Assembly: GCA_963698885.1 (NCBI GenBank)
Contig: CAVOSJ010000007.1
Span: 25,554-89,553, forward strand
Reading direction: 5' to 3'
Source: Nitrospirota bacterium
Lineage (GTDB): Bacteria > Nitrospirota > JACRHJ01
DNA length: 64,000 nucleotides
Part shown: piece by piece, positions 108 to 53,900 of the stretch
Layout of the letters: every line of letters starts with the position of its first letter
How positions within the stretch are numbered: the stretch's first letter is position 1
Position numbers and translations under genes: made by a program
Notes under the pieces: generated by a model
Told to the model about the DNA's origin: nothing
What the model saw: only the letters and a program-made list of their open reading frames with translations
The model's database searches: none

Positions 108-188
108 GTTACCTTTTTGTAAAAAGGTAACGCCAAAAACTTTTTAAACTATACTGTTAACTCTCCTTTCTGCCGAAAGAAGAGTGCC
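108..188. repeat. Bipartite hairpin/mirror (triplex-type) intergenic repeat, copy 1 (unit A plus degenerate unit B)
   Basis: GTTACCTTTTT-GT-AAAAAGGTAAC-GCCAAAAACTTT at 108-143, followed by a degenerate second hairpin ACTCTCCTTTC-TGCC-GAAAGAAGAGT; lies just downstream of the mfd stop. Confidence 0.85.
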
Positions 189-203
189 ACTATATATAAC
201 ACG

Positions 204-3200
204 CTAAGCCAGTGCTTTCAAGATGTTTTTTATCTCGGTAAACTGCGATTCCCACCCCCCGGAGGGTTTCCTGATGAATACCGTATATTCCGGCACGTAC
301 CGCGCCCGCCCCTTATTTTTACCGAGGTAATCTATTAATTTTTCGGACGATATGTTCGTCCTTCTGGTAAAGGTTATCTTTATCTCCGACGGCAGGAGCT
401 GTATGCCCGCCGCCGAGAGCCTCCTGGCCAGGACCTTGACCTCCATGACCTGAAGAAGCCTCTTGACCGGCCCGGTAAGCTCCCCGTACCGGTCCTTCAG
501 CTCTTCTTTCAGGTCCGCCAGCTCATCCTCGGATTTCGCGCCCGTCAGCCTTTTGTATATCCCCAGCCTGTGAGCGGTGTCCGGGACGTAGCTCTCCGGG
601 ATGAACGCCGATACCTTCAGGTCGAGCGCCGGGTCGGTCTCTTCCGTAACCTCCTCGCCTTTCAGTTCCTTTACTGCCTGCTCCAGCATATGGGTATAGA
701 GCTCGAAACCCACGGCGGTGATGTTCCCGGACTGCTCCGCGCCCAGGATATTCCCCGCGCCCCGGATCTCCAGGTCGTGCAGGGCGAGTTTAAAGCCCGC
801 GCCCAGCTCGGACAGCTCCGAGAGCACCCGCAGGCGTTTCTGGGCCGTCTCCGTAAGCGCGTCCTCGCCCGGCACCAGGAGGTATGCGTACGCCCGCTGG
901 CTTGAGCGGCCCACCCTCCCCCGCAGCTGGTAGAGGTCGGCCAGGCCGAAGCGGTCCGCCCTGTCGATGATTATGGTATTGGCGGCAGGGATGTCCAGGC
1001 CGGATTCCACTATGGAGGTGGAAAGCAGGACGTTATGCTCACCCTTGATGAACTTGCTCATAACCTCTTCCAGGGCGTCCTCGCGCATCCTTCCGTGGGC
1101 GACCCCGATCTTCGCCTCCGGCACAATCTCTTTAAGGACGTTTCCGATGGCGAAGATGCTGTCGATGCGGTTATGCACGAAGAACACCTGCCCGCCCCGC
1201 GCCAGCTCCCGGCGTATCGCCTCCCGTATCACCGTCCTGTCGAACCTCGTAACAACTGTCTTGATGGACTGGCGGTCGGGCGGCGGGGTCTCTATGATGG
1301 ATAAGTCGCGTATCCCCGTAATCGAGAGGTTCAGGGTGCGGGGTATCGGCGTGGCGGTCAAAGTCAGGACGTCAACGGATTTACGCAGGGCCTTAAGCCG
1401 CTCCTTATGGGCCACGCCGAAGCGGTGTTCCTCGTCCACCACCACCAGCCCCAGGTCGTGAAACTCCACGTCCTTTTGCAGGAGGCGGTGCGTGCCGATA
1501 ACGATATCGACCGTGCCTTCGGTTATGCCGTTTTTAATTTCTTTTATTTTTTCCTTCGGCGTGAACCGCGATAATACCTCCACCCTTACCGGAAAAGCGG
1601 CCAGCCTCTGGGAGAACGTCTCGTGGTGCTGGCCGGCCAGGAGCGTGGTAGGCACAAGTACCGCCGCCTGCTTGCCGTCCAGGACCACCTTGAACGCAGC
1701 CCGGATCGCGACTTCCGTTTTGCCGTATCCCACGTCGCCGCATACCAGCCGGTCCATCGGGTGCGGCTCCATCAGGTCGTTTTTTACGTCTTCTATCGCC
1801 CGCGCCTGGTCCGGCGTCTCTTCGTATTCGAACGACGCCTCCATCTCCCGATACAGGTGGTCGTCGGCGCTGTAGGCAAAACCGGGGGCGACGGCGCGCG
1901 CGGCATAGAGGTTTAAAAGCTCCATGGCCATCTCCTGGACGGCCTTTTTCGCCCTTGCCTTCGCCCGCTCCCAGCCCGCCCCGCCGAGCTTTTCAAGGGC
2001 AGGCGCCGCGCCTTCGGAGCCTATATATTTCTGTACCTTCTGCAGCTCGTCCACCGGGACGTACAGCCTGTCCGCGCTGGAGTAAACCACTTCCAGGAAA
2101 TCGCCCTCCACCCCCATCAGCGTCAGGCGCTTGAGCCCCATGTACCTGCCGATGCCGTGGTCGATGTGGACGACGTAGTCGCCTGTCTTAAGCTCGGAGA
2201 GCGAGGTCAAAAACCTCTCGACCTTAGCCCTCGGGGCGGGCGCGCGTTTGGGTTTTTCACCGAAGATCTCGGTGGAGGTTATAAACGCCAGGCCTGATGC
2301 CCGAGGCCGGTCTACCGGCTCCATAAGGAAACCGGACCCAAGGTTGCCCGGAGATATCCTCACCTGGCCCGCGTCTGATTCCAGGTGAAGCGCGGGCGGG
2401 CCCATCACCGCGGGTATTCCGTATTCGGCGAATATCTCCCTGAGCCGCTCGGCCTGGCCAGCCGTGGTAGGCACGACATTCACCGCCCGGCCTCTTAGAA
2501 GATTTTTTAAATTACGGCAGAAAATTGAAATCGGCGTCTTGGGCAGGTCTTCCGGCCAGGGAGTGGGCACGCTCTCCCGCAGCCTCAGGCCCTCGATGGA
2601 ACGGGTATGATATTCAAGCGGTATTACGTCCTTTGCGCGGGGCGCGAGCGGCAGGGACTCCGCATATACGAACGGCAGACGCCCGGTCAACCCCGCAAGC
2701 TCGTCCGCACTGAGGTAGATCGCCTCCGGACGCGGAATGGCCCGGACAGCCTCGGTTTTGTCCGCCTCCTCGTATGATAAAAAAACACGCCCCTCGAACT
2801 CCCGTGCGTGGGAGAATACCCGCTCCGGCTCGTCGATGAACAGCACGGGCGGCTCCGGGAAGTAATCGATAATGGTAGCCATCGGCGCCCGCCCCGGCCC
2901 TTCCGGCCTCCGTCTCCCTGGCAGGTATCGCTTCGATTTCTTCGAGTTCGGCGGTCGAACGCTGGGTGTCCGGGTCGAACTCCCGGACTGATTCTATGGT
3001 ATCCCCGAAAAACTCTACCCGTGCGGGCGCGCTGCTCCCCGGAGGGTAGAGGTCCATTATCCCGCCCCGGACAGAGAACTCTCCCGGCTCATATACCATC
3101 GACACCCGTGAATATCCGAGCTTCACCAGCGTTTCAAGAAGCGTCTCGCGCGGATAATCCCGGCCTTTGGCCAGGTGGAGGATTTTTTGCGGGGACAAAA

Positions 3201-3597
3201 GCGACGACGGCTTTGGAAGCCTCTGCATGATTGCCGCCGCCGGGGCGATTATCACGCGCGCATTGCCGGAATTAACGTCCCTCAATACGCGCAGTCTTTG
3301 GGCGACGCATTCAGGGTCCGGGTCCATAATGTCATAAGGCAGGACGTCCCAGGGAGGGAATAAAAAGGCGGCGGGGCCGTCCTGGGAGAGGTTATTGGCG
3401 AAATAGAGGTAGTCGGACAGGAGGCTGTCAGCCTCCTTGACGGTAGCCGCAAGCGCGAGGATAGGCTTCCCAAGCCCCCTTGCAAGCTCCCAAAGAAAGA
3501 GGGCCTTGGATGCGCCCCAAAGCCCGCCCGCCGCCGCCTTCCCCCCAGCGGTCAGCGCGTCTTGCGCCTGTTTAAAAATCGGGGAAGAATTATCCAT
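204..3597 (-). CDS. mfd: Transcription-repair coupling factor Mfd, split by a probable indel near 2880-2910
   Basis: ORF 2614..3672 gives the UvrB-like N-terminus (PGEFSVRGGIMD; probable ATG at 3597). ORF 204..2882 gives the RID domain (GDYVVHIDHGIG), helicase motifs (GDVGYGKT, DEEH, QLRGRVGR) and TRCF domain. Confidence 0.95.
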
Positions 3598-3642
3598 CAG
3601 GTTGTTTATTATGATACCCGGAACTCGGGACATTAAAAACTT

Positions 3643-3680
3643 GTTACCTTTTTGGTAAAAAGGTAACGCCAAAAACTTTT
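3643..3680. repeat. Triplex-type repeat, copy 2 (unit A only)
   Basis: GTTACCTTTTT-GGT-AAAAAGGTAAC-GCCAAAAACTTTT; the tail overlaps the inferred stop of the upstream minus-strand gene. Confidence 0.9.
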
Positions 3681-4231
3681 AGACGCTTATCGGGCCGTTC
3701 GCGTGCCACATCTGGAAGAGGTTCATAAATCCCGCCATGCCTATTATAATTATCAGCAGGGCCAGGACAAGGAAAACAAACAGCATCGGGAATATCACCA
3801 CCACTACAGACCTGGCCGTGGAGAGCTTGTGTACCCGCTCCGTTACGATTACCGCGACGGGTATCGTCCAGAGGCATTAAGATGGAGCCAAGGAAGGGCA
3901 CTATGGCGGCCCATGTCGGCATGCACCCGACGCCCAACGCGCCGTAATAGCTCCTGTAGCTCCCCGTCCCGCCCAGGATTTTCGCGATTATAAAAAATAT
4001 GAAGACGTGGACGAATGACATCAGGACGATGACTATCGGCCAGAATATTATCGCCGGAGCGCCAAAGCCGAAACTGTGAAACGTTACCCCGATGCCCCTG
4101 GCCAGCCCGGCGATGGCGACGAAAAGCATCCCGGCGTTGAAGGCGTCCGGGTCCTCGGCCAGCTCGTCCGCCGCCGGACGGGACAGCTTTATTAGTTCAA
4201 TCCCCTTTGCAAGATAGCCGCGAAAGTCCAT
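3679..4231 (-). CDS. Yip1-like multi-pass membrane protein, probable frameshift near 3875
   Basis: Hydrophobic helices with an AKILGGTGSY motif; the hydrophobic C-terminus continues in another frame and ends ...FMNLFQMWHANGPISV-stop at 3679. Confidence 0.6.
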
Positions 4232-4242
4232 TTAAACCCTTT

Positions 4243-4339
4243 GTTACTTTTCTTTCGGGAAAGAAAAGTAACCAAAAGAAAGCTGGGCCAAAGGCCAGTT
4301 TAAAAGTTTTTGGTGTTACCTTTTTCCCAAAAAGGTAAC
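4243..4339. repeat. Triplex-type repeat, copy 3 (unit B then inverted unit A)
   Basis: GTTACTTTTCTTTC-GG-GAAAGAAAAGTAAC-CAAAAGAAAGC ... AAAAGTTTTTGGT-GTTACCTTTTT-CCC-AAAAAGGTAAC. Confidence 0.9.
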
Positions 4340-4343
4340 GGTC

Positions 4344-4830
4344 TTACGCCTTCCCGTATTTTTCCAGTATGCGCTCGATAATGCCCGTCGTCGATGCGCC
4401 CTCTATGTACGGTATAGAGTATACCTTGCCGCCGCCGGTCTCGACAATGTCTCTGCCGACTATTTCCTCCACGGCCCAGTCCCCGCCCTTTACCAGTACG
4501 TCCGGCATAAGCTCGGCTATCACCCGGCCCGGGTCCCCCTCCTCGAATACCGTGACGTAGTCCACCACCGCGAGCGAGGCCAGCATCTCCGCGCGCTCCG
4601 CCTGCGGCATGATGGGGCGCTTATCTCCCTTTATCATCCTTACGGAGTCGTCGGAGTTCACCGCCACAATCAAGTATGTCCCCGTAGCTCTTCGCCATCT
4701 GGAGGTAGCGGGAGTGCCCGGTGTGCAGGATATCGAAGCAGCCGTTGGTGAAGACAATTTTCTTCCCCGCAGCCTTCAAGTCCTCGACTATCTCGCGCAG
4801 TTCGTCATGGTTTTTAACTTTTCGCATCAT
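4344..4830 (-). CDS. rfaE2: D-glycero-beta-D-manno-heptose 1-phosphate adenylyltransferase (RfaE domain II), frameshifted near 4680
   Basis: [16 protein letters not shown] in ORF 4621..4830; [22 protein letters not shown] and [11 protein letters not shown] in ORF 4344..4757. Confidence 0.9.
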
Positions 4831-4845
4831 GATGTGTACCTCAAA

Positions 4846-5151
4846 TTACGACCCGAAAAAGAACCGGTCCAGCGGCAGGTCGGGGCCGCTTAAGTATTCG
4901 TCGCGGCAGGCGCGGCAGAGGAAGAATATCATCTGGGTATGCACCTCCTGCTCCAACTCTGTCTCGTCTTTTCCCTCGATGACCTTCAGCAGGTGGTCAA
5001 GCTCCTTCTCCAGTTCCTCGACCGTCTCGATCTCGCCGTCGGTGGACGCATTCACGCGCACGTCCACCTTGTAGCGCACCGAGCCGTTCGGGAAAACAAC
5101 CCCGCATCTGTAGCAGCGGCCCGGGCCGCCCAGTTCAGCGCACATATTCAT
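4846..5151 (-). CDS. Small hypothetical protein with two CxxC pairs (putative Zn-binding)
   Basis: CYRC ... CRAC flanking an acidic helix; tightly packed in the operon. Confidence 0.65.
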   Translation of the reverse strand: MNMCAELGGPGRCYRCGVVFPNGSVRYKVDVRVNASTDGEIETVEELEKELDHLLKVIEGKDETELEQEVHTQMIFFLCRACRDEYLSGPDLPLDRFFFGS

Positions 5152-5154
5152 TCC

Positions 5155-6166
5155 TTAACCCCTCGCCTTCGGGAGAGGCGGGGTGTCCTCCAGCACCGCC
5201 CCGGCCAGCAGGGGGAACATTATCTCGTGGTGTCCGGTCAGGCTGTACCCCTTCCCGCCCTTCATGGTGGGCCGGCGGACGACGTTCGTGTTCGGGCGGT
5301 AAGACTGTATGAAGTCCATGTTCACAGTGGTGATTTTACTTAACGGGCTTCCCAGGTTCCGGGCGAGCGTCACGGCCTTCAGGAACGCTTCCGGGAGGAT
5401 AATGGCGGAGCCCAGGTTGATATACACCCCGCCCTCCATCGACGCCACCACGGAGCAGAATGTCCTGAAGTCCCGGAGGCTGCCTTCGCCTGTGGCCGCG
5501 CCGTCGCACGACGGATGCATGTGGATAATATCCGTCCCGATGGCGACATGCACCATTGCCGGGACTTTAAGCCTGTGGGCCGCCGCGAGCAGGCTCTTCT
5601 CCGGAAATTTGAAACTTATACCCCTGCCAGTCGCTCCCGAAGTGGCCTTCTCCGTAAGGGTGAATCCCTCCGCGATGGCCTTCCCGACCGACGCGCCGAG
5701 GCCAAGACCCTCAGCCGACTCCCTTGACGATGGCCGCGTTTATATAGCCGCCCGTCTCCTCGGCCATCCCGAAGGTGCCTGTGCCAATCTCGGCGTCAAC
5801 GTCCTCGGAAGTTTGACCCTGGTACGCCATCTCGAAGTCATGCACGAGGCAGGCCCCGTTCATGGCCAGCGCGTTGATGACTCCCTTCTCCATCAGGTCT
5901 ATTATAACAGGCGTGAGGCCAACCTTTATAACGTGCGCCCCCATCCCGAGGATTACCGTCTTCCCGCCGCGTTTCGCGTCGGCTATGGAACGCGCGACGG
6001 CCTTTAAATCCTTTGCCCCGAGTATCTCCGGCAGGCTGTCCAGGAAACCGGCAAAACTTATGCCGGGAGCGAGTGCTTTCGCGGAAAAAGACGCCTCCAC
6101 CTTGCTCTTCCGGCTGGAGAGGCTGTAGGTCTTTAGTCTCGTGAAATCGAGCGGTTTGAACTTCAA
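5155..6166 (-). CDS. Deoxyhypusine-synthase-like conserved protein, frameshifted near 5710
   Basis: ORF 5711..6166 (VILGMGAHVIKVG, AMNGACLVHDFE, GTFGMAEETG) and ORF 5155..5556 (VHVAIGTDIIHMHP, NLGSAIILPE, GHHEIMFPLL) read as halves of one protein. Confidence 0.65.
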
Positions 6167-6756
6167 TTGGCCCCCCGGCTGTTTCCGAAGAGGCGCTCGT
6201 CAACTAACTGGCAGATTACGTGCCCGAGCGTGATATGAGTCTCCTGTACCCTGGGCGTATCCGGCGTCGGAACCACGAATACCAGTTCCGCAACCGTGGC
6301 GAGCTTGCCGCCTTTGTTCTTCCCGCCGGTAAAGGCGATGGTCTTGATCCCCATGTCTTTGGCCGCGGATATGGCCTTGACTACATTGGGCGAGTTGCCG
6401 GAGGTGGATATCCCTATTGCCACGTCCCCCTCCTGGCCCAGCGCTTTTAACTGCTTCACGAATATCTCGGAGTAGTCGTAGTCGTTCGATATGCTGGTCA
6501 AAACGGCAATGTCGGTATTAAGCGCGATTGCGGGCAGGCCGGGGCGCTCCAGCAGGAAGCGGTTCACGAATTCCCCGGCGATATGGGAAGCGTCCGTCGC
6601 GCTGCCCCCGTTCCCGAACAGGAGCACCTTGTTCCCGCGCGTAAAGCACGCCGCGACCTGTTCCACCGCCTCCTGTATGGCCTCGACATTCTCGCTTGCG
6701 AACTTCATCTTTACCTTTGCCGATTCCTCGAAAATCCGCAGGATGTCTTCTTTCAT
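6163..6756 (-). CDS. gmhA: D-sedoheptulose-7-phosphate isomerase
   Basis: FGNGGSATDASH, SNDY, ISTSGNSPN, RVQETH motifs. Confidence 0.95.
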   Translation of the reverse strand: MKEDILRIFEESAKVKMKFASENVEAIQEAVEQVAACFTRGNKVLLFGNGGSATDASHIAGEFVNRFLLERPGLPAIALNTDIAVLTSISNDYDYSEIFVKQLKALGQEGDVAIGISTSGNSPNVVKAISAAKDMGIKTIAFTGGKNKGGKLATVAELVFVVPTPDTPRVQETHITLGHVICQLVDERLFGNSRGAN

Positions 6757-6882
6757 CGGACCCTCTTTAGGTTTATTGTAAAAAAACGCTTTAGTTTACT
6801 CCTGGTAGCCCTCGATTGTCAATGAAAACATAAGAATTTTCTTGCGTTACTAAGGACTTGCGCGTAAACTTTTAGTCCATAA

Positions 6883-7153
6883 ATGAGACTCGACATATTC
6901 CTTAAGATTAGTCGGCTGATAAAGCGCAGGAGCGTCGCCAAGGAGCTTTGCGACCGGGGAAGGGTAGAGGTCGGGGGCGCGCCCGCCAAGGCCGGGCGGG
7001 AGATTAAGGCCGGGGACGTACTTACGATTGCGCTGCCCAGGAGAAAGCTTACCGTCGAGGTAAGTGGAAATCCCTTCCGGCAACGTCGCCAAAGAGAAGG
7101 CGGCAGGGTTGTACATGGTAATCGAGGACTTGCGTGTAGAGGAGGAGTTTTAG
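6883..7153 (+). CDS. RNA-binding S4 domain protein (Hsp15/YabO-like), probable indel near 7068
   Basis: MRLDIFLKISRLIKRRSVAKELCDRGRV; after the shift it continues PSGNVAKEKAAGLY...EEEF-stop at 7153. Confidence 0.85.
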
Positions 7154-7156
7154 ATT

Positions 7157-8188
7157 ATGGAACTGGCCCTTAAAGAGCGGGACTCGCGTCCGCTTCTTGC
7201 AATTACGATGGGAGACCCGGCTGGCGTCGGCCCGGAGATAATACTGAAGGCCCTGAACGTGAAGGCGGTAGTCGACTGTTGCCGTCCGGTTATCGTGGGC
7301 AGCATGAAGGCGCTGGAGGAGGCAAAGACGCCGCTCCCGATGGGCACGCAGAGGGGGCTTCTTGCCGTTAGTGAACCGCTACATGAGGCGCCGTCCGGCG
7401 TCGTGGAAGTGGTGGACGTGGACTCGGACTTGAACTTGAACCTTCCGGCGCTCCCCCCTGGAAAGCCGACGGCTGAAGCTGGGCATATTTCCGTGGCCTG
7501 CATAAAAAAGGCTGTACAGTTGGCGCTTGATAAAAAAGTTGACGCCGTGGTTACCGCCCCCATAACTAAAGAGACCCTCAAAATGGCGGGATACCCGTAC
7601 CCGGGGCATACGGAACTCCTGGCGGAGCTGACCGGGGCGAAGGAATACTCCATGCTGCTGACTGGCGGGGGACTGCGGGTCGTCTTAGTGACGATACACG
7701 TGGCCCTGAGGGACGTGGCGGGCCTGATCAAAAAAGAGGGGGTATTAAGGGCCATTCGACACGCGGACAAGGCGTGCCGGATGATGGGCATATCGGAGCC
7801 GAAAGTGGCCGTCTGCGGACTGAACCCCCATGCCGGGGAGTCGGGGCTTTTCGGGGACGAGGAGATAAAGGAAATCAGCCCCGCCTGCCGGGAAGCCAGG
7901 GAGGCCGGCATAAAGGTATTCGGGCCGCTGCCCGCGGATACGCTCTTCCACCGCGCGCTGAACCACGATTTCGACGCGGTCGTGGCAATGTATCACGACC
8001 AGGGGCTGGGGCCGCTCAAGATGCTTGCGTTCGGCCACGCGGTGAACGTTACCCTGGGCCTCCCGATTATCAGGACGTCGGTAGACCACGGCACCGCGTA
8101 TGACATAGCGGGCAAGGGGATAGCCAATCCGGACAGCCTGGTCGAGGCTATAAAGCTCGCGGCGCTTATGGCGGGTAAGAGGGGATAA
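7157..8188 (+). CDS. pdxA: 4-hydroxythreonine-4-phosphate dehydrogenase
   Basis: ITMGDPAGVGPE, GHTE, GLNPHAGE, AMYHDQGL, RTSVDHGTA. Confidence 0.95.
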   Translation: MELALKERDSRPLLAITMGDPAGVGPEIILKALNVKAVVDCCRPVIVGSMKALEEAKTPLPMGTQRGLLAVSEPLHEAPSGVVEVVDVDSDLNLNLPALPPGKPTAEAGHISVACIKKAVQLALDKKVDAVVTAPITKETLKMAGYPYPGHTELLAELTGAKEYSMLLTGGGLRVVLVTIHVALRDVAGLIKKEGVLRAIRHADKACRMMGISEPKVAVCGLNPHAGESGLFGDEEIKEISPACREAREAGIKVFGPLPADTLFHRALNHDFDAVVAMYHDQGLGPLKMLAFGHAVNVTLGLPIIRTSVDHGTAYDIAGKGIANPDSLVEAIKLAALMAGKRG

Positions 8189-8194
8189 ACCTTT

Positions 8195-8294
8195 GTTACC
8201 TTTTTGGAAAAAGGTAACGCCAAAAACTTTTGGACGTTTTTAACCCCCGCTTTTCTTTGTGTTACTTTCTCTTTCTCGCGAAAGAGGAAGTAAC
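8195..8294. repeat. Triplex-type repeat, copy 4 (unit A then inverted unit B)
   Basis: GTTACCTTTTT-GG-AAAAAGGTAAC-GCCAAAAACTTTT ... GCTTTTCTTTGT-GTTACTTTCTCTTTC-TCGC-GAAAGAGGAAGTAAC; begins a few nt after the pdxA stop. Confidence 0.9.
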
Positions 8295-8321
8295 GGTTTA
8301 AGCACTTGGGAGGTTTTAGCC

Positions 8322-8736
8322 ATGCCGATAGAATGGACGCAGGACCTCGCGGTAGGTGTTAAAATTATCGACGAGCAGCACAAGGAGATATTCAGGCGGG
8401 TTGACGCGCTCCTGGAGGCGTGCAAGGCCGGGAAAGGGGAAGGACGCCGTCGGAGGGATGCTGACTTTTCTGGAAGACTACATCGTGGAGCATTTCGCGG
8501 CTGAAGAGGCCATCCAGATGCAGTACGCCTATCCAGGCTATAAGACGCATAAGCAGGAGCACGAGCGGTTTATCCAGTCCGTAGATGAACTGAAAAAGAA
8601 ATTCGAGAAGGAGGGGCCGTCGTTGATGACGGTTTTAGAGACGAACAGGACGGTGGTGGACTGGCTGGTGAAGCATATCAAAAAAGTCGACATGGACCTC
8701 GGGGCGTACCTGAAGCTCTCTAAAATGAAAGATTGA
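8322..8736 (+). CDS. Bacteriohemerythrin, frameshift near 8435
   Basis: MPIEWTQDLAVGVKIIDEQHK, then EHFAAEE, HKQEH and WLVKHIKKVD iron-ligand motifs; GGGAGG RBS. Confidence 0.9.
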
Positions 8737-8747
8737 CGGAGGTTGCC

Positions 8748-9134
8748 ATGACTTACCACATATCGAAAAAAATTAAGATATCTTACGAAGAAGCGCTCGC
8801 GAAGGTGGCCGAGGAGCTTAAGAAGGAAGGCTTCGGGATACTGACGGAGATAGACGTTAAAGAGACGCTGAAGAAGAAGCTGGACGTGGACTTCCACAGG
8901 TACAAAATACTGGGCGCGTGCAACCCGTCCTTTGCTTACAAGGCGCTCACGCTGGAGGACAAGATAGGGACCATGCTCCCCTGCAACGTTATCGTGCAGG
9001 AGCTGTCCGGCGGAGGAGTAGAGGTATCCGCGGTAGACCCTATAGCCTCGATGATGGCCATAGATAATCCGGCCCTGGGCGACGTGGCATTGGCGGTGCG
9101 GGATAAGCTGGCGAAGGTAATTGAAAATATATAA
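8748..9134 (+). CDS. DUF302 family protein
   Basis: GFGILTEIDV, YKILGACNP, IGTMLPCNV motifs; GGAGG RBS. Confidence 0.85.
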   Translation: MTYHISKKIKISYEEALAKVAEELKKEGFGILTEIDVKETLKKKLDVDFHRYKILGACNPSFAYKALTLEDKIGTMLPCNVIVQELSGGGVEVSAVDPIASMMAIDNPALGDVALAVRDKLAKVIENI

Positions 9135-9139
9135 TTTAA

Positions 9140-9961
9140 ATGCAGAATATAAATAAGATCCTTCCCAAAAAATCCCTCGGCCAGAACTTTTTAGTAGATG
9201 AGAATATCATCTCCCGCATTATCCAGGCCGCGCAGGCGACGAAGGACGACACGGTAATCGAGATAGGCCCCGGCATGGGCGCCATGACGAAAGACCTTGC
9301 CGATGCGGCGGGTAAAGTAATCGCGATCGAACTGGACGAGCGGCTTTTCCGCAAGCTTAAAGCAGAACTTAAAGATACGGGGAACCTCGACCTGGTCCTG
9401 GGAGACGCATTGACGTTCCCTTATGAGTCATTGCCCGGCCCGGTCAAGGTGGTAGCGAACCTCCCGTACTATATCTCCACGCCCATCATCACCAGGCTTA
9501 TAGAGGCGCGCGAGAAGATCTCGGAAATGGTCCTGATGCTTCAGAAAGAGGTCGCCCAGCGCATAACCGCATCGCCGGGCGGGAAGGAATACGGTTACCT
9601 GTCCGTGATGGTGCAGCTCTGGACGGAGGCCGTAAATTTATTTAACGTGCCCAAGGAGGCGTTTACGCCAGTCCCGAAGGTGGACTCGGCCGTGGTGCGC
9701 CTGAGGGTGCGAGAGACGCCCGCAGTGAGGGTTTCGGACCTGGTTTTTTTTGAAAAAGTGGTCAGCGCGGCCTTTTCCCAGCGCAGGAAGACGCTAAGAA
9801 ATTCGCTTAAAAATAGCAGGGTTACCGAGCCTTCGAGGTTCGAGGCCGCGATGGAGCTTGCCTATAAATCCGGAATAGACCCTATGCGGCGCGCGGAGAC
9901 TCTATCATTGTCCGAATTCGCCAGTTTAGCCGAAATTTTGTTTGAAAACCGGAGCTTATAA
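9140..9961 (+). CDS. rsmA: 16S rRNA m6,2A1518/1519 dimethyltransferase
   Basis: KKSLGQNFL, IEIGPGMG, VANLPY, QRRKTL. Confidence 0.95.
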   Translation: MQNINKILPKKSLGQNFLVDENIISRIIQAAQATKDDTVIEIGPGMGAMTKDLADAAGKVIAIELDERLFRKLKAELKDTGNLDLVLGDALTFPYESLPGPVKVVANLPYYISTPIITRLIEAREKISEMVLMLQKEVAQRITASPGGKEYGYLSVMVQLWTEAVNLFNVPKEAFTPVPKVDSAVVRLRVRETPAVRVSDLVFFEKVVSAAFSQRRKTLRNSLKNSRVTEPSRFEAAMELAYKSGIDPMRRAETLSLSEFASLAEILFENRSL

Positions 9962-10035
9962 TGCTATATTAAATTTATTGCTATGCAAGGCGGACGAAAG
10001 TCCGCTTTTTTTCATATTGGAGGACCCCGCCCGCC

Positions 10036-11754
10036 ATGGCCGATTTAATCTCAAATCAAGCCCCTTACGCATCCGGTACACCGGCCCCCGGTCCGGACGC
10101 TCCTGTTTTATCCGTCATCCCGCTCGGAGGAGTGGGGGAGATAGGTCTTAACTCGACCATCCTGGAGTATGGCGACGATATCGTCCTCATAGACTGCGGG
10201 CTGATGTTCCCTGACGACGAGATGCTGGGCGTGGACATCGTCATCCCGGACTTCGCATACTTAATCGAGAACCGGCACAAGCTCCGCGCGGTCGTCATCA
10301 CGCACGGGCACGAGGACCACACCGGCGCGCTTCCGTATCTCCTGAAAGAAATCAACGTCCCGGTGTATGGGACTCTCCTCACGCTCGGCCTGATAAAAGA
10401 GAAGCTCATCGAGCACGAGCTGGACCAGAAAGTGGAACTGATACCGGTGAAGCCCAGGGACGTGGTCGATATCGGCCCGTTCAAGATCCAGTTTATACGG
10501 GTCACGCACAGCATCGTGGACGGAGTCGGCCTGGGCATTACCACGCCGGTTGGAAGGATCGTACACACAGGCGATTTCAAGATAGACCCGACGCCGGTGG
10601 ACAACCAGCTCATGGACCTGGGCCTTTTCTCCCAGTACGGCATGGACGGGGTACTACTGCTTATGTCGGATTCCACTAATGCTACCGTAGGTGGGTTTAC
10701 GTTCTCCGAAAAAGAAGTCCGCCGCGCGTTCGAAGACATATTCGCCAAGACGAAGAAGCGCATAATCATCGCCTCGTTCGCCTCCAACATCCACCGCATC
10801 CAGCAGGCCGTGGACGTGGCCGAGATGTTCGGCAGGAAGATAATCTTAAACGGACGGAGCATGGTGGCGAACGCGCGGATCGCCGCCGATTTGGGTTACC
10901 TGAAGATCCCGGACGGGATGTCGCGGCGGTTGGAAGACCTGAAGGATTTAAAGGACGAGGAAGTGGTCATCATCACCACCGGGAGCCAGGGCGAGCCGAT
11001 GAGCGCGATGAGCCGCATCGCCATGAACGAGCACAAGCAGGTCAAAATAAGACCGGGCGATACCGTAATCATTTCGGCAAAGATTATCCCCGGCAACGAA
11101 AAGTCCATCAACAGGATAATCAACCACCTCTTCATGCGCGGTGCGGACGTGAAGTACGAGAAGACCTCGGAGATTCACGTCTCCGGCCACGCGAGCAAGG
11201 AAGAGCTGAAGCTGATGCTGAACATGATAAAGCCGCGCTACTTCATCCCGGTGCACGGCGAGTACCGCCACCTTATATCCCATGCCAATTTAGGCAGGAA
11301 GGTGGGCATCCCGGAAGAGAACATCTTCATACTTAAAGACGGCGACGTGATGGAGTTCGACGGGGAGAGCGCGAGGAAGGCCGGTTTCATCGCGGCAGGG
11401 CGGGTATTCATAGACGGCAAGGGCATAGGCGACGTTGGCGACGAGGTGCTGCGCGACAGGATGCGCCTCGCGCACGACGGAGTCGTGATATGCATTATCG
11501 GCCTGGAAAAGCTGACCGGCAAGGTGGTGACCGGCCCGGACATAATCTCGCGCGGTTTCATATTCGAGGATGCATCGTCTGAGCTTATGCTTGAGGTCAA
11601 GGACGTCGTGGACGACCTGCTGCTCACCATGACCCCGGAGATAAAGGCGGAGATGCAGCTTGTCCAGAACGCGGTACGAGGGGCGCTCAAGAAGTTCATA
11701 AAGAAGCGCATGAACCGCCTTCCGATGATTCTGCCGATTGTGATGGAGATATAG
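10036..11754 (+). CDS. rnj: Ribonuclease J
   Basis: PLGGVGEIG, THGHEDH, HTGDFK, HVSGH, PVHGE. Confidence 0.95.
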   Translation: MADLISNQAPYASGTPAPGPDAPVLSVIPLGGVGEIGLNSTILEYGDDIVLIDCGLMFPDDEMLGVDIVIPDFAYLIENRHKLRAVVITHGHEDHTGALPYLLKEINVPVYGTLLTLGLIKEKLIEHELDQKVELIPVKPRDVVDIGPFKIQFIRVTHSIVDGVGLGITTPVGRIVHTGDFKIDPTPVDNQLMDLGLFSQYGMDGVLLLMSDSTNATVGGFTFSEKEVRRAFEDIFAKTKKRIIIASFASNIHRIQQAVDVAEMFGRKIILNGRSMVANARIAADLGYLKIPDGMSRRLEDLKDLKDEEVVIITTGSQGEPMSAMSRIAMNEHKQVKIRPGDTVIISAKIIPGNEKSINRIINHLFMRGADVKYEKTSEIHVSGHASKEELKLMLNMIKPRYFIPVHGEYRHLISHANLGRKVGIPEENIFILKDGDVMEFDGESARKAGFIAAGRVFIDGKGIGDVGDEVLRDRMRLAHDGVVICIIGLEKLTGKVVTGPDIISRGFIFEDASSELMLEVKDVVDDLLLTMTPEIKAEMQLVQNAVRGALKKFIKKRMNRLPMILPIVMEI

Positions 11755-11758
11755 GGGC

Positions 11759-12269
11759 ATGAAAATATAAAATAGGCTTAATCGCTATCTTTTTATTAAT
11801 TTTTTCTGTTGGAAATACCCGTGCTCAAGATTTGACTTCGGAATCACCAGAGAATTTCATTCGCCGTATATATAAAGAACATCTGGATGTTCTTTATTCG
11901 GATTTTCGACAGGACAATGATTGTTTAAACAAAAAGAAGTATTCACAATATTTTGACCCCAATCTAACAATGCTGCTTATTCGTGATGATAAATACACGG
12001 AGAAACACCCTGGAGAAGTCGGTGACCTTGATTTTGACCCTATAATTGATGCACAAGATTTCGATGAGAAGCTTCCGGTCAGTGTAGTAGTGACGAAACT
12101 GGATTCTAAATTCCCAGTTCGCATCAAGGTCGTTTTTTCAAATATAAGTCCAAGGACAATTGTATTTGAGCTTAAACAGACAGAGCAAGGTTGGAGAATT
12201 AGCGACATCATTTATTCTGATGGTAGCTCATTGGTAAAGATATTGTCACAGCCAATTGATGATCAATAA
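11759..12269 (+). CDS. Low-GC secreted protein, DUF3828/YbjP-like; an extra A after the ATG interrupts the signal peptide
   Basis: Removing one A from ATGAAAATAT gives MKYKIGLIAIFLLIFSVGNTRAQ joined to ORF 11832..12269; motifs LDFDPIIDAQD and GWRISDI. Confidence 0.65.
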
Positions 12270-12288
12270 ATTTTATAAAGACATAGAC

Positions 12289-12318
12289 TTGCTTTAACCA
12301 TACTCAACCCTGTAGAAT
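12289..12318 (+). promoter_or_regulatory. Candidate sigma70 promoter for thiG-thiE-thiC
   Basis: TTGCTT-18 bp-TAGAAT upstream of a GGAGG RBS. Confidence 0.45.
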
Positions 12319-12351
12319 AATAGGTACATTAGGTAAGTAATGGAGGAATAG

Positions 12352-13125
12352 ATGGAAGACGTTTTAAATATTGCGGGAATCTCGTTTCGCTCCCGGCTCT
12401 GGATAGGTACGGGGAAGTATGCCTCGTTCGCCGAGACGAAGGAGGCGGTGGAGGCGTCCGGCGCGGACGTGGTGACGGTCGCTGTGCGGCGGACTAATAT
12501 CACGGACAGAAGCTCCGAGAACCTGCTCGACTATATCGACCCGAAGGTATATAAAATCCTGCCGAACACCGCCGGATGCTATACCGCCGAGGACGCCATG
12601 CGCTACGCTAGGCTTGCGCGCGCGGCGGGGATATCGGACATGGTGAAGCTTGAAGTCATCGGGGATGAGCGCACGCTTTTCCCGGACAACGAGGCGACTC
12701 TCTATGCCACGAGAGAGTTGGTGAAGGAGGGCTTCATCGTATTTCCGTACATCGGCGACGACCCGGTCATGTGCAAAAAACTCGAAGACGCGGGCGCGGC
12801 GGCGGTGATGCCCCTTGCGGCGCCGATAGGCTCCGGCCTTGGGATAAGAAACCCGTACAACATAAAAATAATCCTGGAGACGGTCAAGCTTCCGGTAATA
12901 GTGGACGCGGGTGTGGGGACGGCGTCGGACGCGGCTTTTGCGATGGAACTCGGCGTGGAGGCGGTGCTTTTAAATACCGCGGTCGCCGGTGCAAAGTACC
13001 CGGTAGTGATGGCAAGGGCGATGAAGCTCGCCGTGGAGGCGGGACGGCTGGCGTATAAAGCAGGGCGGATGCCCAAGAAACTTTACGCGACGGCCTCAAG
13101 CCCGATCGAGGGGATGATTTCGTAG
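12352..13125 (+). CDS. thiG: Thiazole synthase
   Basis: [39 protein letters not shown]. Confidence 0.97.
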
Positions 13126-13127
13126 TT

Positions 13128-13772
13128 ATGATGGAATTTTGTTTTTACCTCATAACTGACAGGAAAAGCCTGCCAAAAGGGAGGACCATCGAGCAGGTAC
13201 TGGAAACCGCGTTCGTGGCGGGGGTGAAGGGCGTGCTTCTCCGGGAGAAGGACCTTCCGGACAAGGAGCTTCTTCTTCTTGCCCAGCGGGTACGGGACCT
13301 GTCGCTTCGGCATGGCGTCAAAATGCTTGTCAGCACCCGCGCGGATATCGCGGTTGCTGTCGGGGCGGACGGTGTGCACCTGCCCTCTGAGGGAGTATCG
13401 CTGAAGGCGGCGCGTGAAGTGGTGGGGGTCGAGAGATATATAGCCGTCTCGACCCATTCACTGGCGCAGGCTCTTCAGGCGGAGGACGAGGGAGCTGATT
13501 TCCTGACTTTCGGCCCGGTGTACCGTACGAAGTCAAAAGAGAAGTTCGGCGAGCCGAAGGGCTTGGGTGCATTGGAAGAGGCATGCAAAAAAGTGCGGAT
13601 ACCGATATTCGCAATTGGCGGTATGAACCAGGAAAATGTGGCGGAAGCCCTTAACCGGGGTGCGTTCGGGATAGCGGCGATCTCCGCGGTGATGGCTGCT
13701 GAGGACCCGGCGCTCGCGGTGAAAGGGATAATGGATATTATTCGATCTTACAGGATGGGAAGGTGCGTCTAA
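13128..13772 (+). CDS. thiE: Thiamine-phosphate synthase (ThiE/TenI family)
   Basis: YLITDR, LREKD, ADGVHL, VSTHS, FGPVY.T.SK, AIGG. Confidence 0.8.
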   Translation: MMEFCFYLITDRKSLPKGRTIEQVLETAFVAGVKGVLLREKDLPDKELLLLAQRVRDLSLRHGVKMLVSTRADIAVAVGADGVHLPSEGVSLKAAREVVGVERYIAVSTHSLAQALQAEDEGADFLTFGPVYRTKSKEKFGEPKGLGALEEACKKVRIPIFAIGGMNQENVAEALNRGAFGIAAISAVMAAEDPALAVKGIMDIIRSYRMGRCV

Positions 13773-15070
13773 TGCTGACAAGGATGCCAACAAGAATGGA
13801 TGCCGCGAAAAGAGGAATTTTGACGCCGGAAGTCGAGGCGGCGGCGAAATCGGAAGGAGTTTCCCCGGATTTCCTGATGCAGGGGCTGGCGGAAGGGACG
13901 ATCGTGGTATGCCGCAATAAAGTCCATTCTGGCATTGCTCCGCTTGCGGTCGGGAAAGGGACGCGGACGAAGATAAACGCCAATATCGGCACCTCCAAAG
14001 ACAACTCGGATATAGATAACGAACTGGCGAAGCTCCGCGCGGCCGTATCTCTCGGCGCGGACGCGGTGATGGACCTCTCCACCGGAGGGCCGATAAAGGA
14101 AATCCGCCGGAGGCTGATGGAAGTCAGCACCGTCGCGGTCGGCACCGTGCCAATCTACCAGGCGGCGGTCGAGGCGGCGGCGAACAAAGGCTCGGTGGTG
14201 GACATGACGGCGGACGACATGTTCCGTTCCATCGAGGAGCAGGCCGCGCAGGGCGTGGACTTCGTGACCGTACACTGCGGCGTGACGCGGGAGTCCGTCG
14301 GGCGCATAAAAAAGGAAGGCCGAATCCTCGACGTGGTATCGCGCGGGGGCGCTTTCCTGGTCGAATGGATGGTGATTAACGGGAAAGAGAACCCGCTCTT
14401 CGAAGACTTTGGGCGACTGCTGGAGATTGCAAAAAAGTATGACGTCGTGCTGTCGCTTGGCGACGGGCTCCGGCCGGGGTGCATCGCCGACGCGACGGAC
14501 AGGGGGCAGATAACCGAGCTTGTGACGCTTGGCGAGCTTACCCAGGCGGCCTGGGCGGAGGGCGTGCAGGTCATTATAGAGGGGCCGGGGCATGTGCCCC
14601 TTCACGAGGTGGAGACGAACATAAAAATTCAGAAGGCGCTCTGCAAGGGCGCGCCGTTCTATGTCCTGGGGCCGCTGGTCACGGACATAGCTCCCGGATA
14701 CGACCACATCACCTCGGCTATCGGCGGCGCGGTCGCGGGCATGGCCGGCGCGGATTTCCTGTGCTACGTGACGCCATCTGAACACCTGAGACTCCCGGAT
14801 TTAGACGACGTGAAAGAAGGCGTCGTGGCGGCGAAGATCGCGGCGCACGCGGCGGACGTTGCCAAAGGTCTGCCGGGCGCGATAGATAAGGACATCGCGA
14901 TGGCGAAAGCGCGCAAGGCGCTGGACTGGGAGGGGCAGATCGCGCTCTCGGTGAACCCGGAGAAGGCGCGCGCGTTCCATACCCCCGGCGAGGGCGAAGG
15001 CGCCGACGCCTGCACGATGTGCGGGGAGTTCTGCTCGATAAAGCACGTGCAGGAGTACTTTAAAAAATAA
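13772..15070 (+). CDS. thiC: Phosphomethylpyrimidine synthase, short form
   Basis: KINANIGTS, MDLSTGG, VSRGG, LGDGLRPG, EGPGH, C-terminal CTMCGEFC; thi operon context. Confidence 0.92.
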   Translation: MLTRMPTRMDAAKRGILTPEVEAAAKSEGVSPDFLMQGLAEGTIVVCRNKVHSGIAPLAVGKGTRTKINANIGTSKDNSDIDNELAKLRAAVSLGADAVMDLSTGGPIKEIRRRLMEVSTVAVGTVPIYQAAVEAAANKGSVVDMTADDMFRSIEEQAAQGVDFVTVHCGVTRESVGRIKKEGRILDVVSRGGAFLVEWMVINGKENPLFEDFGRLLEIAKKYDVVLSLGDGLRPGCIADATDRGQITELVTLGELTQAAWAEGVQVIIEGPGHVPLHEVETNIKIQKALCKGAPFYVLGPLVTDIAPGYDHITSAIGGAVAGMAGADFLCYVTPSEHLRLPDLDDVKEGVVAAKIAAHAADVAKGLPGAIDKDIAMAKARKALDWEGQIALSVNPEKARAFHTPGEGEGADACTMCGEFCSIKHVQEYFKK

Positions 15071-15074
15071 TACC

Positions 15075-15111
15075 TTCCACCTTTCTTGAAAGAAAGTTGG
15101 AGCCAAAGAAC
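15075..15111. repeat. Triplex-type repeat, copy 5 (variant unit A)
   Basis: TTCCACCTTTCTT-GA-AAGAAAGTTGGAG-CCAAAGAAC between the thiC stop and the lolA start. Confidence 0.7.
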
Positions 15112-15117
15112 ATTAAA

Positions 15118-15768: not shown

Positions 15769-15787
15769 TTCACGTTTTTTCAGCCCA

Positions 15788-15883
15788 GCTTTTCTTTGTG
15801 ATACTTCCACCTTACGGAGGCGAAGGCTCCGAAGATGAAAAAATGCGCGGCGCCTTAGCCGCTTTTCCCGAAAAGAAAGTATC
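15788..15883. repeat. Triplex-type repeat, copy 6 (unit B with an internal insertion)
   Basis: GCTTTTCTTTGT-GATACTT[~55-nt insert]CTTTTC-CC-GAAAAGAAAGTATC; compensatory GATAC/GTATC replaces GTTAC/GTAAC. Confidence 0.7.
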
Positions 15884-15902
15884 GGACCTTTAGGAGGCAT
15901 AG

Positions 15903-16400
15903 ATGGCAGCGGAAAGTTCTTTCGACATAGTTTGCAAAATAGACATGCAGGAGCTGGACAACGCGGTCAACCAGACGATGAAGGAGATCGCGCAGCGGTT
16001 CGATTTCAAGGGCAGCAAAAGCGAGATCCTCCTGGACAAGCTGAAGGGGACGCTGACCATTTCCACGGAGGACGATTTCCGCCTGACGAACGTCAACGAC
16101 ATCCTCCAGTCGAAGGTGATAAAACGCGGGATCTCGCTTAAGGCCCTTTCTTACGGCAAGGTGGAACCGGCGGCGGGCAGCACTGTCCGGCAGGTGGTCA
16201 CGCTCCAGCAGGGGATACCGCAGGAGAAGGCGAAAGAGATAGTGAAGCTGATTAAGAACACGAAGATGAAGGTGAACGCCTCGATACAGCAGGACCAGGT
16301 CCGAGTCGCCGGCAAGAACAGGGACGACCTGCAGGAGATCATAAGGATCCTCAAAACCCAGGACCTGGATATAGACATGCAGTTCATAAACTACCGGTAG
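15903..16400 (+). CDS. yajQ: YajQ family nucleotide/c-di-GMP-binding protein
   Basis: [34 protein letters not shown]. Confidence 0.93.
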
Positions 16401-16404
16401 CTTG

Positions 16405-17986: not shown

Positions 17987-17996
17987 GAATTTCTTC

Positions 17997-20020: not shown

Positions 20021-20123
20021 GTACTTTTCTTTCAGGTGAAAGAAAAGTACCAAAAGAAAGCCGGACTGGGCGGAGCCAAATTTAAAAGTTCTTTGGTGCT
20101 ACCTTTCTTTCAAGAAAGGTAGC
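20021..20123. repeat. Triplex-type repeat, copy 7 (unit B then inverted variant unit A)
   Basis: GTACTTTTCTTTC-AGGT-GAAAGAAAAGTAC-CAAAAGAAAGC ... AAAAGTTCTTTGGT-GCTACCTTTCTT-TC-AAGAAAGGTAGC; starts 4 nt after the aconitase stop. Confidence 0.88.
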
Positions 20124-20143
20124 GAATTTAAAGGGGGCTATCG

Positions 20144-50081: not shown

Positions 50082-50082
50082 A

Positions 50083-50571: not shown

Positions 50572-50612
50572 TTCAAAAGCATTTTTCCGTTAATATTCTC
50601 TTTTAGAATACC

Positions 50613-50719
50613 GTTACCTTTTTGGAAAAAGGTAACGCCAAAAACTTTTGGACTTGTACAGCTAAAACAATTCACGATTTTCTTTTGGTTACTTTTCTTT
50701 TTTCCAAAAGAAAAGTAAC
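50613..50719. repeat. Triplex-type repeat, copy 8 (unit A then inverted unit B)
   Basis: GTTACCTTTTT-GG-AAAAAGGTAAC-GCCAAAAACTTTT ... TTTTCTTTT-GGTTAC-TTTTCTTTT-TTCC-AAAAGAAAAGTAAC. Confidence 0.9.
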
Positions 50720-50746
50720 GAATTTTTTTTAAAGGAGCTATTAAAC

Positions 50747-53764: not shown

Positions 53765-53804
53765 ATACTGCCGCCTTCCTGAAAAGCCAATAAAAAAAAC
53801 CTTT

Positions 53805-53900
53805 GTTACCTTTTTGGGAAAAAGGTAACACCAAAAACTTTTGAACTTAAAACCCCGCTTTTCTTTGTGTTACTTTCTTTTCCCGTGAAAAGAAAGTAAC
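53805..53900. repeat. Triplex-type repeat, copy 9 (unit A then inverted unit B)
   Basis: GTTACCTTTTT-GGG-AAAAAGGTAAC-ACCAAAAACTTTT ... GCTTTTCTTTGT-GTTACTTTCTTTTC-CCGT-GAAAAGAAAGTAAC; 4 nt from the glmS stop. Confidence 0.9.

Follow-up and report, generated by a model that had tools for sequence, protein, structure and literature searches.

A mirrored third tract accompanies the hairpins of a dispersed, A/T-rich intergenic repeat family in a Nitrospirota bacterium

A 64,000-nucleotide stretch of a Nitrospirota genome (contig CAVOSJ010000007.1, positions 25,554 to 89,553 of the forward strand; hereafter the window) contains short intergenic hairpin units, each flanked on one side by a third tract that is the mirror image of a hairpin arm. 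Our analysis supports this mirror, or parallel-complement, relation between the third tract and the arms as a rule that holds genome-wide and across the host's taxonomic family, and the repeat itself is confined to this one uncultured-looking bacterial family. The apparent covariation of the three tracts is a property of propagating subfamilies and not of compensatory change in place. From the sequences, we consider it somewhat more probable than an even chance that the units are class IV pyrimidine-motif intrastrand triplex repeats, similar in lifestyle to repetitive extragenic palindromes (REP) and bacterial interspersed mosaic elements (BIME), with the pyrimidine-leader strand active as RNA or single-stranded DNA.

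Architecture of the repeat units

Window coordinates refer to the + strand, and the strand given for a unit is the one that carries its pyrimidine leader. There are two kinds of hairpin unit, A and B, each with a third tract on one side of the hairpin. The type A hairpin reads GTTACC-TTTTT-loop-AAAAA-GGTAAC, and in the solo A units at 108 and 3643 it is followed on the + strand by gcc AAAAA. The type B hairpin begins with GTTAC and a pyrimidine arm of 8-9 nt that contains a single internal C; after the loop come the complementary purine arm and GTAAC. Depending on the strand, the third tract appears as a purine tail 3' of the hairpin or as a pyrimidine leader 5' of it. Read along the pyrimidine strand, a unit comprises a 5' leader (a pyrimidine run and one or two G), a linker of 0-2 nt, a clamp, the pyrimidine arm, the loop, the purine arm and the second half of the clamp, which is a mixed-sequence stem of 3-5 bp standing between the leader and the arms. 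The hairpin loop spans 2-6 nt; the second spacer spans 5-9 nt and is mostly one strand of the base-paired clamp. At the foot of the hairpin lies G(T)TAC, preceded by G or by GT/GC, and the clamp covaries as a stem among the variants GTTAC, GTAC, GCTAC, GATAC, GTCC/GGAC and CCAC/GTGG.

The B units fall into types. Type 1 has the leader CTTTCTTTT and the arm TTTTCTTTC, type 2 the leader CTTTTCTTT and the arm TTTCTTTTC, and type 3 the leader TTTTCTTTT. Types 1 and 2 mirror each other, the leader of each equalling the clamp C plus arm of the other, and the core TTTCTTT is common to all B tracts.

The third tract mirrors the arm genome-wide

The original prediction, made from the window, described nine copies of a hairpin with a mirror tail. 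All nine are present as described: solo A units at 108 and 3643, an A-like variant at 15075, a B unit with a nested insertion at 15788, and head-to-head pairs of units at 4243, 8195, 20021, 50613 and 53805. The tracts that it quoted for 4243 and 20021, 53805, 50613, and 15075 and 20098 are correct, as are its closing-stem variants and its remark that unit B of the fourth copy (8261-8294) fits imperfectly. A pattern search for all copies in the window's own genome (G000; 2.54 Mb in 8 contigs, designated C1, C2 and so on, 55% G+C, 95% complete) then returned 187 hairpin loci with one regular expression and 195 with a broader one, and 187 of these 195 loci have a matching third tract upstream.

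The mirror relation was measured on 82 B-type hairpins of G000 chosen blind to their flanks, by comparing the tract 1-4 nt upstream of the clamp with the pyrimidine arm. The leader was the exact mirror of the arm in 77 of the 82 units and had at most one mismatch in 80, while exact direct repeats numbered 11 (self-mirror types) and exact reverse complements none. On the other flank, none of the 82 units had an exact mirror. Where the arm is not its own mirror image, 67 of 72 leaders were mirrored and one was a direct repeat. In 2000 trials with the flanks shuffled among units, mirror matches averaged 29.7 and never exceeded 45, compared with the 77 observed. Moreover, the maximal upstream pyrimidine run of these 77 units equals the mirrored arm in both sequence and length, and three of the five misses are a counting artefact in which the clamp C was taken as part of the arm.

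Four leader/arm states account for most units: CTTTCTTTT/TTTTCTTTC (37), CTTTTCTTT/TTTCTTTTC (19), TTTTCTTT/TTTCTTTT (10) and TTTTCTTTT (9). Rarer states are TTTTTCTTT/TTTCTTTTT and TTTCTTT, found once each, and the A variant TTCTTT/TTTCTT at window positions 20089-20123 and 15077-15110. Genomes G002, G005 and G007 contain a further state, TTTCTCTTT/TTTCTCTTT, with an extra C in all three tracts. Every multi-copy subfamily follows the mirror rule, and all non-matching combinations are single-copy.

A second regularity concerns the G residues. Their number after the leader equals the number that end the purine arm in 186 of 187 units (187 of the 195 loci), with 87 units in the (1,1) class, 99 in the (2,2) class, including five B units with a GTACC clamp, and a single discordant unit. 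Together, the mirror rule and the G rule mean that the leader strand runs parallel to the purine run of the 3' arm and matches it over its full length, with T over A, isolated C over G, and G over the terminal G.

Could such a pattern arise in an ordinary REP/BIME-like repeat, or one resembling a miniature inverted-repeat transposable element (MITE), that forms no triplex? The mirror would then be a by-product of low complexity and a few founder subfamilies, and the T-rich leader would be a copied part, for example a spacer or a U-tract for a protein of the ribosomal-protein S1 or Hfq type. Such a repeat would account for the existence of only about seven states, which recur across genera, and for the core shared by all tracts and the homopolymeric A tract; its turnover and position, too, would be those of REP/BIME, with whole elements replaced at orthologous sites instead of mutating in place. 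It does not predict that non-self-mirror states in multiple copies are always mirrored (67 of 72, against one direct repeat), that leader length follows arm length exactly, that G counts agree in all units but one, that a base change such as the extra C of TTTCTCTTT occurs in all three tracts, or that rule-breakers remain single-copy. We regard an ordinary hairpin repeat as improbable.

Whole elements are replaced between close relatives

For a site-by-site comparison we used a close relative, G001, whose flanks are ~91% identical to those of G000. Of ten window loci, only two had the same content in both genomes (108 and the pair at 20021). Pairs or B units were present in one genome only at 4243, 8195, 15788, 3643, 50613, 53805 and 55740, and the site at 15075 is occupied in G001 by an unrelated insertion of ~0.9 kb. 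This insertion, which lies opposite 15075-15110, is A/T-rich and holds an open reading frame (ORF) starting with a Cys-rich CPCGS..KYK.CCG motif that is SEC-C-like by eye. A second comparison, of nineteen loci taken from the best B matches in G001, found the same B type at 4, a different type at 10, a unit in one genome only at 3, an inverted pair at 1 and an eroded unit at 1. At the 10 type-changed loci, all three tracts, the loop and the spacer differ, and the flanks and the neighbouring A unit are alike. Because tracts, loop and spacer change together between unchanged flanks, it is whole B elements of ~70 nt that have been replaced, often beside the AAAAACTTTT flank of an A unit.

Pairing, position at gene edges, and gain, loss and swapping between species that are ~91% identical all indicate that what was described as covariation lies between fast-turnover, REP/BIME-like subfamilies. 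The predicted three-tract covariation thus holds in that the tracts differ together between subfamilies, but this is not site-by-site compensation. Similarly, the third tract bears out the statement that this is not an ordinary REP, whereas the head-to-head pairs, intergenic position and presence/absence differences are all REP/BIME-like.

One orthologous site (C1:14763-15063 in G000) has the pair order A-B in one genome and B-A in the other; the B type and the A clamp (CTCCACC/GGTGGA) differ there as well, and either inversion or independent replacement could have produced it. Comparison of empty and filled sites at four loci revealed no consistent target-site duplication. At one compared site there is a possible 7-bp repeat with one mismatch. 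No match to the Y1 transposase of REP-associated tyrosine transposases (RAYT) and IS200 (PF01797) was found in G000, with the control positive in 6 of 14 reference genomes, so a RAYT-associated REP was rejected. Searches for reverse transcriptase, the TnpB zinc-ribbon domain and the IS110 transposase also returned no matches in G000; other transposase families were not searched. A RAYT-like gene flanked by units was considered and rejected as well, since the 10 intervals tested, of 21 short intervals flanked by units, all hold housekeeping genes (among them those for NuoK, an EPSP-synthase-family enzyme, HisB, MreB and DapB).

Predicted active strand and fold

If the units are class IV triplex repeats, the single-stranded leader strand would fold into the hairpin and its leader would lie in the major groove of the A/T-rich upper stem, forming T/U.A-T/U and C+.G-C triples with the Hoogsteen strand at the 5' end. 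The triplex fold would be needed for propagating or keeping the element. We know of no base-specific physical code other than base triples that fits a parallel complement, and the triplex is the best available explanation that we can offer for the strictness of the rule.

The original prediction took the 3' purine tail as the relevant strand. Wobble bias, tract composition and linker geometry instead favour the pyrimidine-leader strand as the active one. Among 15 non-Watson-Crick positions in the B stems of 100 units, there are 11 G.T and 2 C.A as read on the leader strand, a C.A on this strand being a G.T on the opposite one, and orthologous units in G001, as well as G009, add more wobbles on the leader strand. 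A T-rich composition with isolated C, as in these tracts, suits the pyrimidine motif; A-rich purine-motif triplexes are weak. Prediction with RNAfold gives a B unit a stable plain hairpin (-17 kcal/mol, z = -4.7); for a whole pair the outer flanks also close, AAAACC with GGUUUU. According to the available text of Holder et al. (2015; PMC4666352), a pyrimidine-motif triplex can form in RNA and a purine-motif triplex cannot.

A different strand relation would be an alternative Watson-Crick switch, in which a competing hairpin forms between the leader and the purine arm of its own unit or of the partner. Because types 1 and 2 are mutual mirrors, the leader of one complements the purine arm of the other in heterotypic B-B pairs. 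Five of the eight B-B pairs combine types 1 and 2 and two more combine types 1 and 4, with perfect cross-pairing, and the leader core can always pair with AAAGAAA. However, just 8 of the 56 pairs are of the B-B kind and 18 B units stand alone; the partner in the other 48 pairs is an A unit with no such complementarity. Pairing with the unit's own arm predicts a direct repeat, which occurs in one of the 72 informative units, and the dominant RNAfold structure is the plain hairpin. Such a switch seems to us hardly credible.

Alternatively, the units might act in duplex DNA, the leader and pyrimidine arm forming a mirror repeat extruded as H-DNA when the DNA is supercoiled, or a protein, nucleoid-associated or not, might read A-tract shape or the minor groove, in which a mirror is indistinguishable from a palindrome; the inverted repeat would then have its own role as a cruciform or hairpin. 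Mirror repeats separated by a spacer of 6-9 nt have the classical geometry of H-DNA, and the loci are unstable between species, as are TMECO loci in Escherichia coli (both points as given in the available text of PMC4666352). The orientation of the pairs is also biased with GC skew (34:12 and 41:19). Yet the purine arm is strictly kept, though H-DNA needs no third arm; nine-base half-sites are generally short for H-DNA; the strand-specific tolerance of G.T (11 versus 2) has no meaning in a duplex; and the clamp stems covary, as expected of a folded single strand. We consider a duplex-DNA feature very unlikely.

The class IV reading leaves RNA and single-stranded DNA as candidates for the folded strand, and RNA is somewhat ahead. 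A stronger form would make the units natural RNA triple-helix modules in operon mRNAs, acting as a nuclease-resistant block immediately 5' of ribosome-binding sites or immediately 3' of stop codons. The U-rich leader would then lie in the deep groove of its own hairpin, forming U.A-U and C+.G-C triples and clamped by the stem of 3-5 bp. We rate this form as unlikely. What the units do is suggested only tentatively by their position and sequence: they may separate cistrons as an insulator or barrier that depends on structure, or some copying machinery may recognise their structure.

Several observations weigh against the class IV triplex reading. Few independent events underlie the rule, since the states are subfamilies that copying has spread: there are about seven states, 4-5 of them informative, and the same types recur across genera. 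The third tract of the A units is a T5 homopolymer and trivially symmetric. At the G.C pairs nearest the clamp the strict mirror fails, the leader carrying G there instead of C. Violators of the rule occur at C4:180072, C4:252003 and C6:402341 in G000, and in the window the leader at 8250-8258 mismatches its own arms (8261-8294). A partial list of G002 leader-side rows, judged by eye, has ~45 of ~55 obeying the mirror rule and ~7 violating it, and single-base leader changes occur in G004 and G010. With regard to the strand, 6 of the 11 wobbles in B stems are one recurrent position, GTTAC/GTGAC, and mismatches in A stems favour neither strand, with 3 that read as G.T on the leader strand and 3 that would do so on the other. 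C+.G-C triples require protonation. Loop 1 of H-type RNA pseudoknots crosses the deep groove by a very short connector, and it is only by likeness to this loop that a linker of 0-2 nt across a clamp of 3-5 bp appears feasible. Finally, units lie in both orientations relative to genes, so an RNA-level role cannot hold for all of them; the A leader of an A-B pair usually falls on the C-rich strand (34:12), and B leaders usually fall on the G-rich one (41:19, counting the B-B pairs). The claim that selection acts on base triples is supported in part: the parallel-complement rule fits triples, but the independent events behind it are few and the subfamilies spread by copying.

Abundance, pairing and gene context

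The A hairpin pattern matched 77 times per strand in G000, compared with none for a reversed control pattern. A total of 174 units (92 A and 82 B) passed the unit criteria, 62 of them solo (44 A and 18 B). The others form 56 pairs, every one of them head-to-head and with its leaders on the inner side: 48 are A-B, 8 are B-B and none is A-A. Hairpins within a pair are 30-54 nt apart, with one gap of 103 nt, and the outer flanks of a pair are inverted (AAAACC ... GGTTTT). The B-B pairs are heterotypic in all eight cases and no pair contains two identical units; the missing homotypic pairs may reflect avoidance of long perfect palindromes.

Distances to genes were taken from crude ORF calls. Where the downstream gene is co-oriented, its start lies a median of 22-24 nt from the unit and a ribosome-binding site is usually visible; with a convergent gene, the median distance from unit to stop codon is 5-9 nt. 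Some units are inside housekeeping operons, an example being nuoK, which lies between A units. There is a modest preference for an A unit at the stop codon and a B unit at the start codon (19 versus 10 clear cases).

Also multi-copy is a long-loop B subfamily whose 33-nt loop insert is a small stem-loop (CTGTC...GACAG). Its clamps are GTTC/GAAC or CTTC/GAAG, and in the two copies read the tail mirrors the purine arm. Copies lie at C4:293561-293700, C4:522160, C3:46892-47002, C7:6626-6747 and C7:156610 in G000, and in G001 opposite window position 55740.

Distribution among relatives

The exact A hairpin is essentially confined to the genus, with 77, 35 and 65 matches per strand in three genomes of the genus, one each in two other genera, and none in 36 other genomes searched. 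At E<=0.01, a covariance model of the B unit matched every one of the 12 genomes in the taxonomic family, between 8 and ~150 times in each. At E<=1e-6 it matched 10 of the 11 other family genomes and none of 129 genomes from 20 other families of the phylum. Units of the other five genera are of the same types, with the new clamps GTCC/GGAC, CCAC/GTGG and GCTAC/GTAG, and a few of them have single-base departures in the leader or arm. In Rfam, only a tRNA reaches the gathering threshold within the window and no family covers the hairpin units; at a pair, with E<=10, the best match scored 26 bits against a threshold of 87, and all were far below threshold. The best-matching metagenomes are labelled peat, with shares of only 0.22-0.29, from which we draw no habitat claim. 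Among the datasets matching window 1-10000, none was of RNA.

Units in the window

The window represents an ordinary stretch of bacterial chromosome and carries mfd, pdxA, RNase J, thiC, lolA and an aconitase-family gene. The A hairpin pattern matched it 6 times, compared with 0.00 expected from 100 shuffles. Table 1 lists the units.

Table 1. Coordinates of the repeat units and their parts in the 64-kb window
Feature	Coordinates	Strand	Details
Solo A unit	99..149	-	Hairpin 108-131; third tract TTTTTGG (- strand) = + 133-139
3' flank (- strand) of the solo A unit at 108	+ 99-107		AAAGGTTTT
Solo A unit	3635..3685	-	Hairpin 3643-3667; third tract + 3669-3675; extra B unit at the G001 orthologous site
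B unit type 1	4235..4283	-	Hairpin 4243-4272: GTTAC TTTTCTTTC ggg.. GAAAGAAAA GTAAC; linker 4273
Purine tail of the B unit at 4243	4274-4282		Reads as leader CTTTCTTTT on the - strand
A unit, paired head-to-head with the B unit at 4243	4300..4346	+	Leader TTTTT 4307-4311, GG 4312-4313, T linker 4314, hairpin 4315-4339
A unit directly 3' of the pdxA stop codon	8186..8226	-	Hairpin 8195-8218; third tract + 8220-8226
B unit just 5' of a ribosome-binding site	8239..8302	+	Leader CTTTTCTTT 8250-8258, G 8259, T 8260, hairpin 8261-8294
A-like variant	15077..15110	-	Hairpin 15077-15100: CCACC TTTCTT ga AAGAAA GTTGG, one mismatch
Tail AAAGAA of the A-like variant at 15077	15105-15110		Leader TTCTTT on the - strand
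B unit type 2, clamp GATAC/GTATC	15789..15883	+	Leader CTTTTCTTT 15789-15797; purine arm GAAAAGAAA 15870-15878
B unit type 1, 4-bp GTAC clamp	20021..20060	-	Hairpin 20021-20050, linker 20051, tail AAAAGAAAG 20052-20060
A variant	20080..20129	+	Leader TTCTTT 20089-20094, GG 20095-20096, T 20097, hairpin 20098-20123
A unit	50604..50649	-	Hairpin 50613-50636; degenerate in G001
B unit type 3	50666..50727	+	Leader TTTTCTTTT 50678-50686, G 50687, hairpin 50688-50719
A unit	53796..53842	-	Hairpin 53805-53829; G001 orthologue GCTACC/GGTAGC instead of GTTACC/GGTAAC
B unit type 2	53847..53908	+	Leader CTTTTCTTT 53858-53866, G 53867, T 53868, hairpin 53869-53900

The orthologous site in G001 is without the whole pair at 4243, and the pair at 8195 is likewise missing there; the arms of the B unit at 8261-8294 are TTTCTCTTTC/GAAAGAGGAA, with one U.G wobble on the leader strand. 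The B unit at 20021 is kept in G001, where its clamp has a G.U wobble on the leader strand. Its partner at 20098 (GCTACC TTTCTT tc AAGAAA GGTAGC) represents a non-self-mirror state and obeys the mirror rule. The B unit at 50688-50719 is followed by a ribosome-binding site and an ATG, and the unit is missing in G001. The B unit at 53869-53900, also missing there, reads GTTAC TTTCTTTTC ccgt GAAAAGAAA GTAAC and is followed by GGTTTT.

In the B unit at 15788, the 5' arm is split by a nested insertion of ~55-60 nt (15805-15862), and G001 has no unit at this site. Metagenome contigs of related strains join 15806 to 15862 or 15892, leaving no nested insertion and an intact hairpin; these contigs (four DNA runs, window 1-20000) are short and often end near repeats, and this is their sole usable result. 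A partial copy of the insertion is found at C2:24837-24885 in G000 (82% over 49 nt).

A role as typical intrinsic terminators was rejected, in agreement with the original prediction: the stems are A/T-rich, the flank is GGTTTTA, and a terminator scan of window 1-20000 gave 23 sites, compared with 22.0 in shuffles. Two of the 23 sites fall at units: a unit hairpin at 3667-3643 and a stem at 4280-4301, within the spacer of the 4243 pair. A sigma-70 promoter role was rejected as a general explanation, no promoter-like site lying consistently at units in the same 20 kb.

The 30 kb from 20200 to 50600 hold no unit of the family, and contig C6 of G000 is especially dense in units. The tRNA gene at 20802-20874, the only Rfam match in the window, lies ~0.7 kb 3' of the pair at 20021-20123. 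Five tandem 435-nt copies at 23934-25973, with 83-85% identity to copy one, probably belong to a repeat-domain protein gene and are unrelated to the hairpin family.

Significance

If the class IV reading is right, the family is an A/T-rich, clamp-bearing variant of the known intrastrand-triplex repeats (BoxC/TMECO), and its architecture would be unusual: a 5' Hoogsteen strand, a Watson-Crick clamp before the triplex tract, and a form compatible with RNA. Earlier evidence that the third strand matters was biophysical and came from one G/C-rich motif. Here, the family is a natural mutational series, in which subfamilies differ in three tracts together and rule-breakers never multiply, and because of this series it becomes directly testable whether the triplex itself is selected. 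Should the fold be real, it would constitute a new kind of structured repeat in the REP/BIME world and may explain the fast turnover of loci. Were the units RNA modules, bacteria would possess, in hundreds of copies, an equivalent of the stability elements represented by the element for nuclear expression (ENE) and MALAT1, and the subfamilies would be the first case in which evolutionary covariation speaks for Hoogsteen triples within a dispersed repeat of bacteria.

Comparison with known systems

The closest known repeats are the potential intrastrand triplex (PIT) elements, BoxC/TMECO of E. coli and other bacteria (PMC4666352, citing Hoyne and Maher 2000), and the literature search found nothing closer, although supplementary tables of that paper might list similar A/T-rich motifs. 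These elements, as far as its available text describes them, and our units are dispersed intergenic repeats in which one strand carries three tracts in a row with the polarity of a triplex; each strand corresponds to one triplex class, loops are less conserved than stems, and loci are rearranged; those of TMECO in E. coli are unstable or rearranged between close relatives. In the classes of PMC4666352, the tract order and polarity of our units are those of class IV on the leader strand and class II on the other strand. The TMECO consensus given there, CCCTCNCCC N3-6 GGGNGAGGG N3 GGGNGAGGG, is G/C-rich and is read as a class II purine motif with the third strand after a 3-nt loop. Our units, in contrast, are A/T-rich with isolated C/G, are likely class IV with the Hoogsteen strand at the 5' end, have a clamp stem between the third strand and the triplex tract, and form several subfamilies differing in all three tracts; the string 'covari' occurs 0 times in the available text of PMC4666352. 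Loops between tracts were limited to 1-6 nt in the ITxF search described there, and many of our units, with a hairpin loop of 2-6 nt and a second spacer of 5-9 nt, would be at or beyond this limit. Membership in the TMECO/BoxC sequence family was rejected, the unit tracts being T/A-rich.

REP, BIME and REPIN (REP doublet forming a hairpin) elements are short palindromic intergenic units present in hundreds of copies, with two types in inverted pairs, after stop codons and in operons; the foot of the REP hairpin has a GTAG-type 5' tetranucleotide and there is a cognate RAYT. The units described here are likewise numerous short intergenic palindromes in head-to-head pairs, after stop codons or in operons, with presence/absence polymorphism. 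Unlike REP/BIME, they have no GTAG-type 5' tetranucleotide and no RAYT/Y1 gene in G000, and they possess the extra parallel-complement tract. Since the two units of a pair are never alike, no long REPIN hairpin is possible. MITEs and the palindrome-associated transposable elements (PATEs) of IS200/IS605 are also small non-coding hairpin units with rapid gain and loss and inverted pair flanks, from which our units differ in having no clear target-site duplication at the 4 compared empty sites and no Y1 or TnpB in G000.

Major-groove U.A-U helices are formed by ENE/MALAT1 elements and by the loop-1 triples of H-type pseudoknots (telomerase RNA, SAM-II and preQ1-II). If the units act as RNA, they would share with these a very short connector, an occasional C+.G-C triple and a deep groove occupied by a U-rich strand that runs parallel to the purine strand. 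The known elements are single-copy and use an A-rich tail or a second stem, whereas here there is no second stem, and the units number in the hundreds and occur in both orientations.

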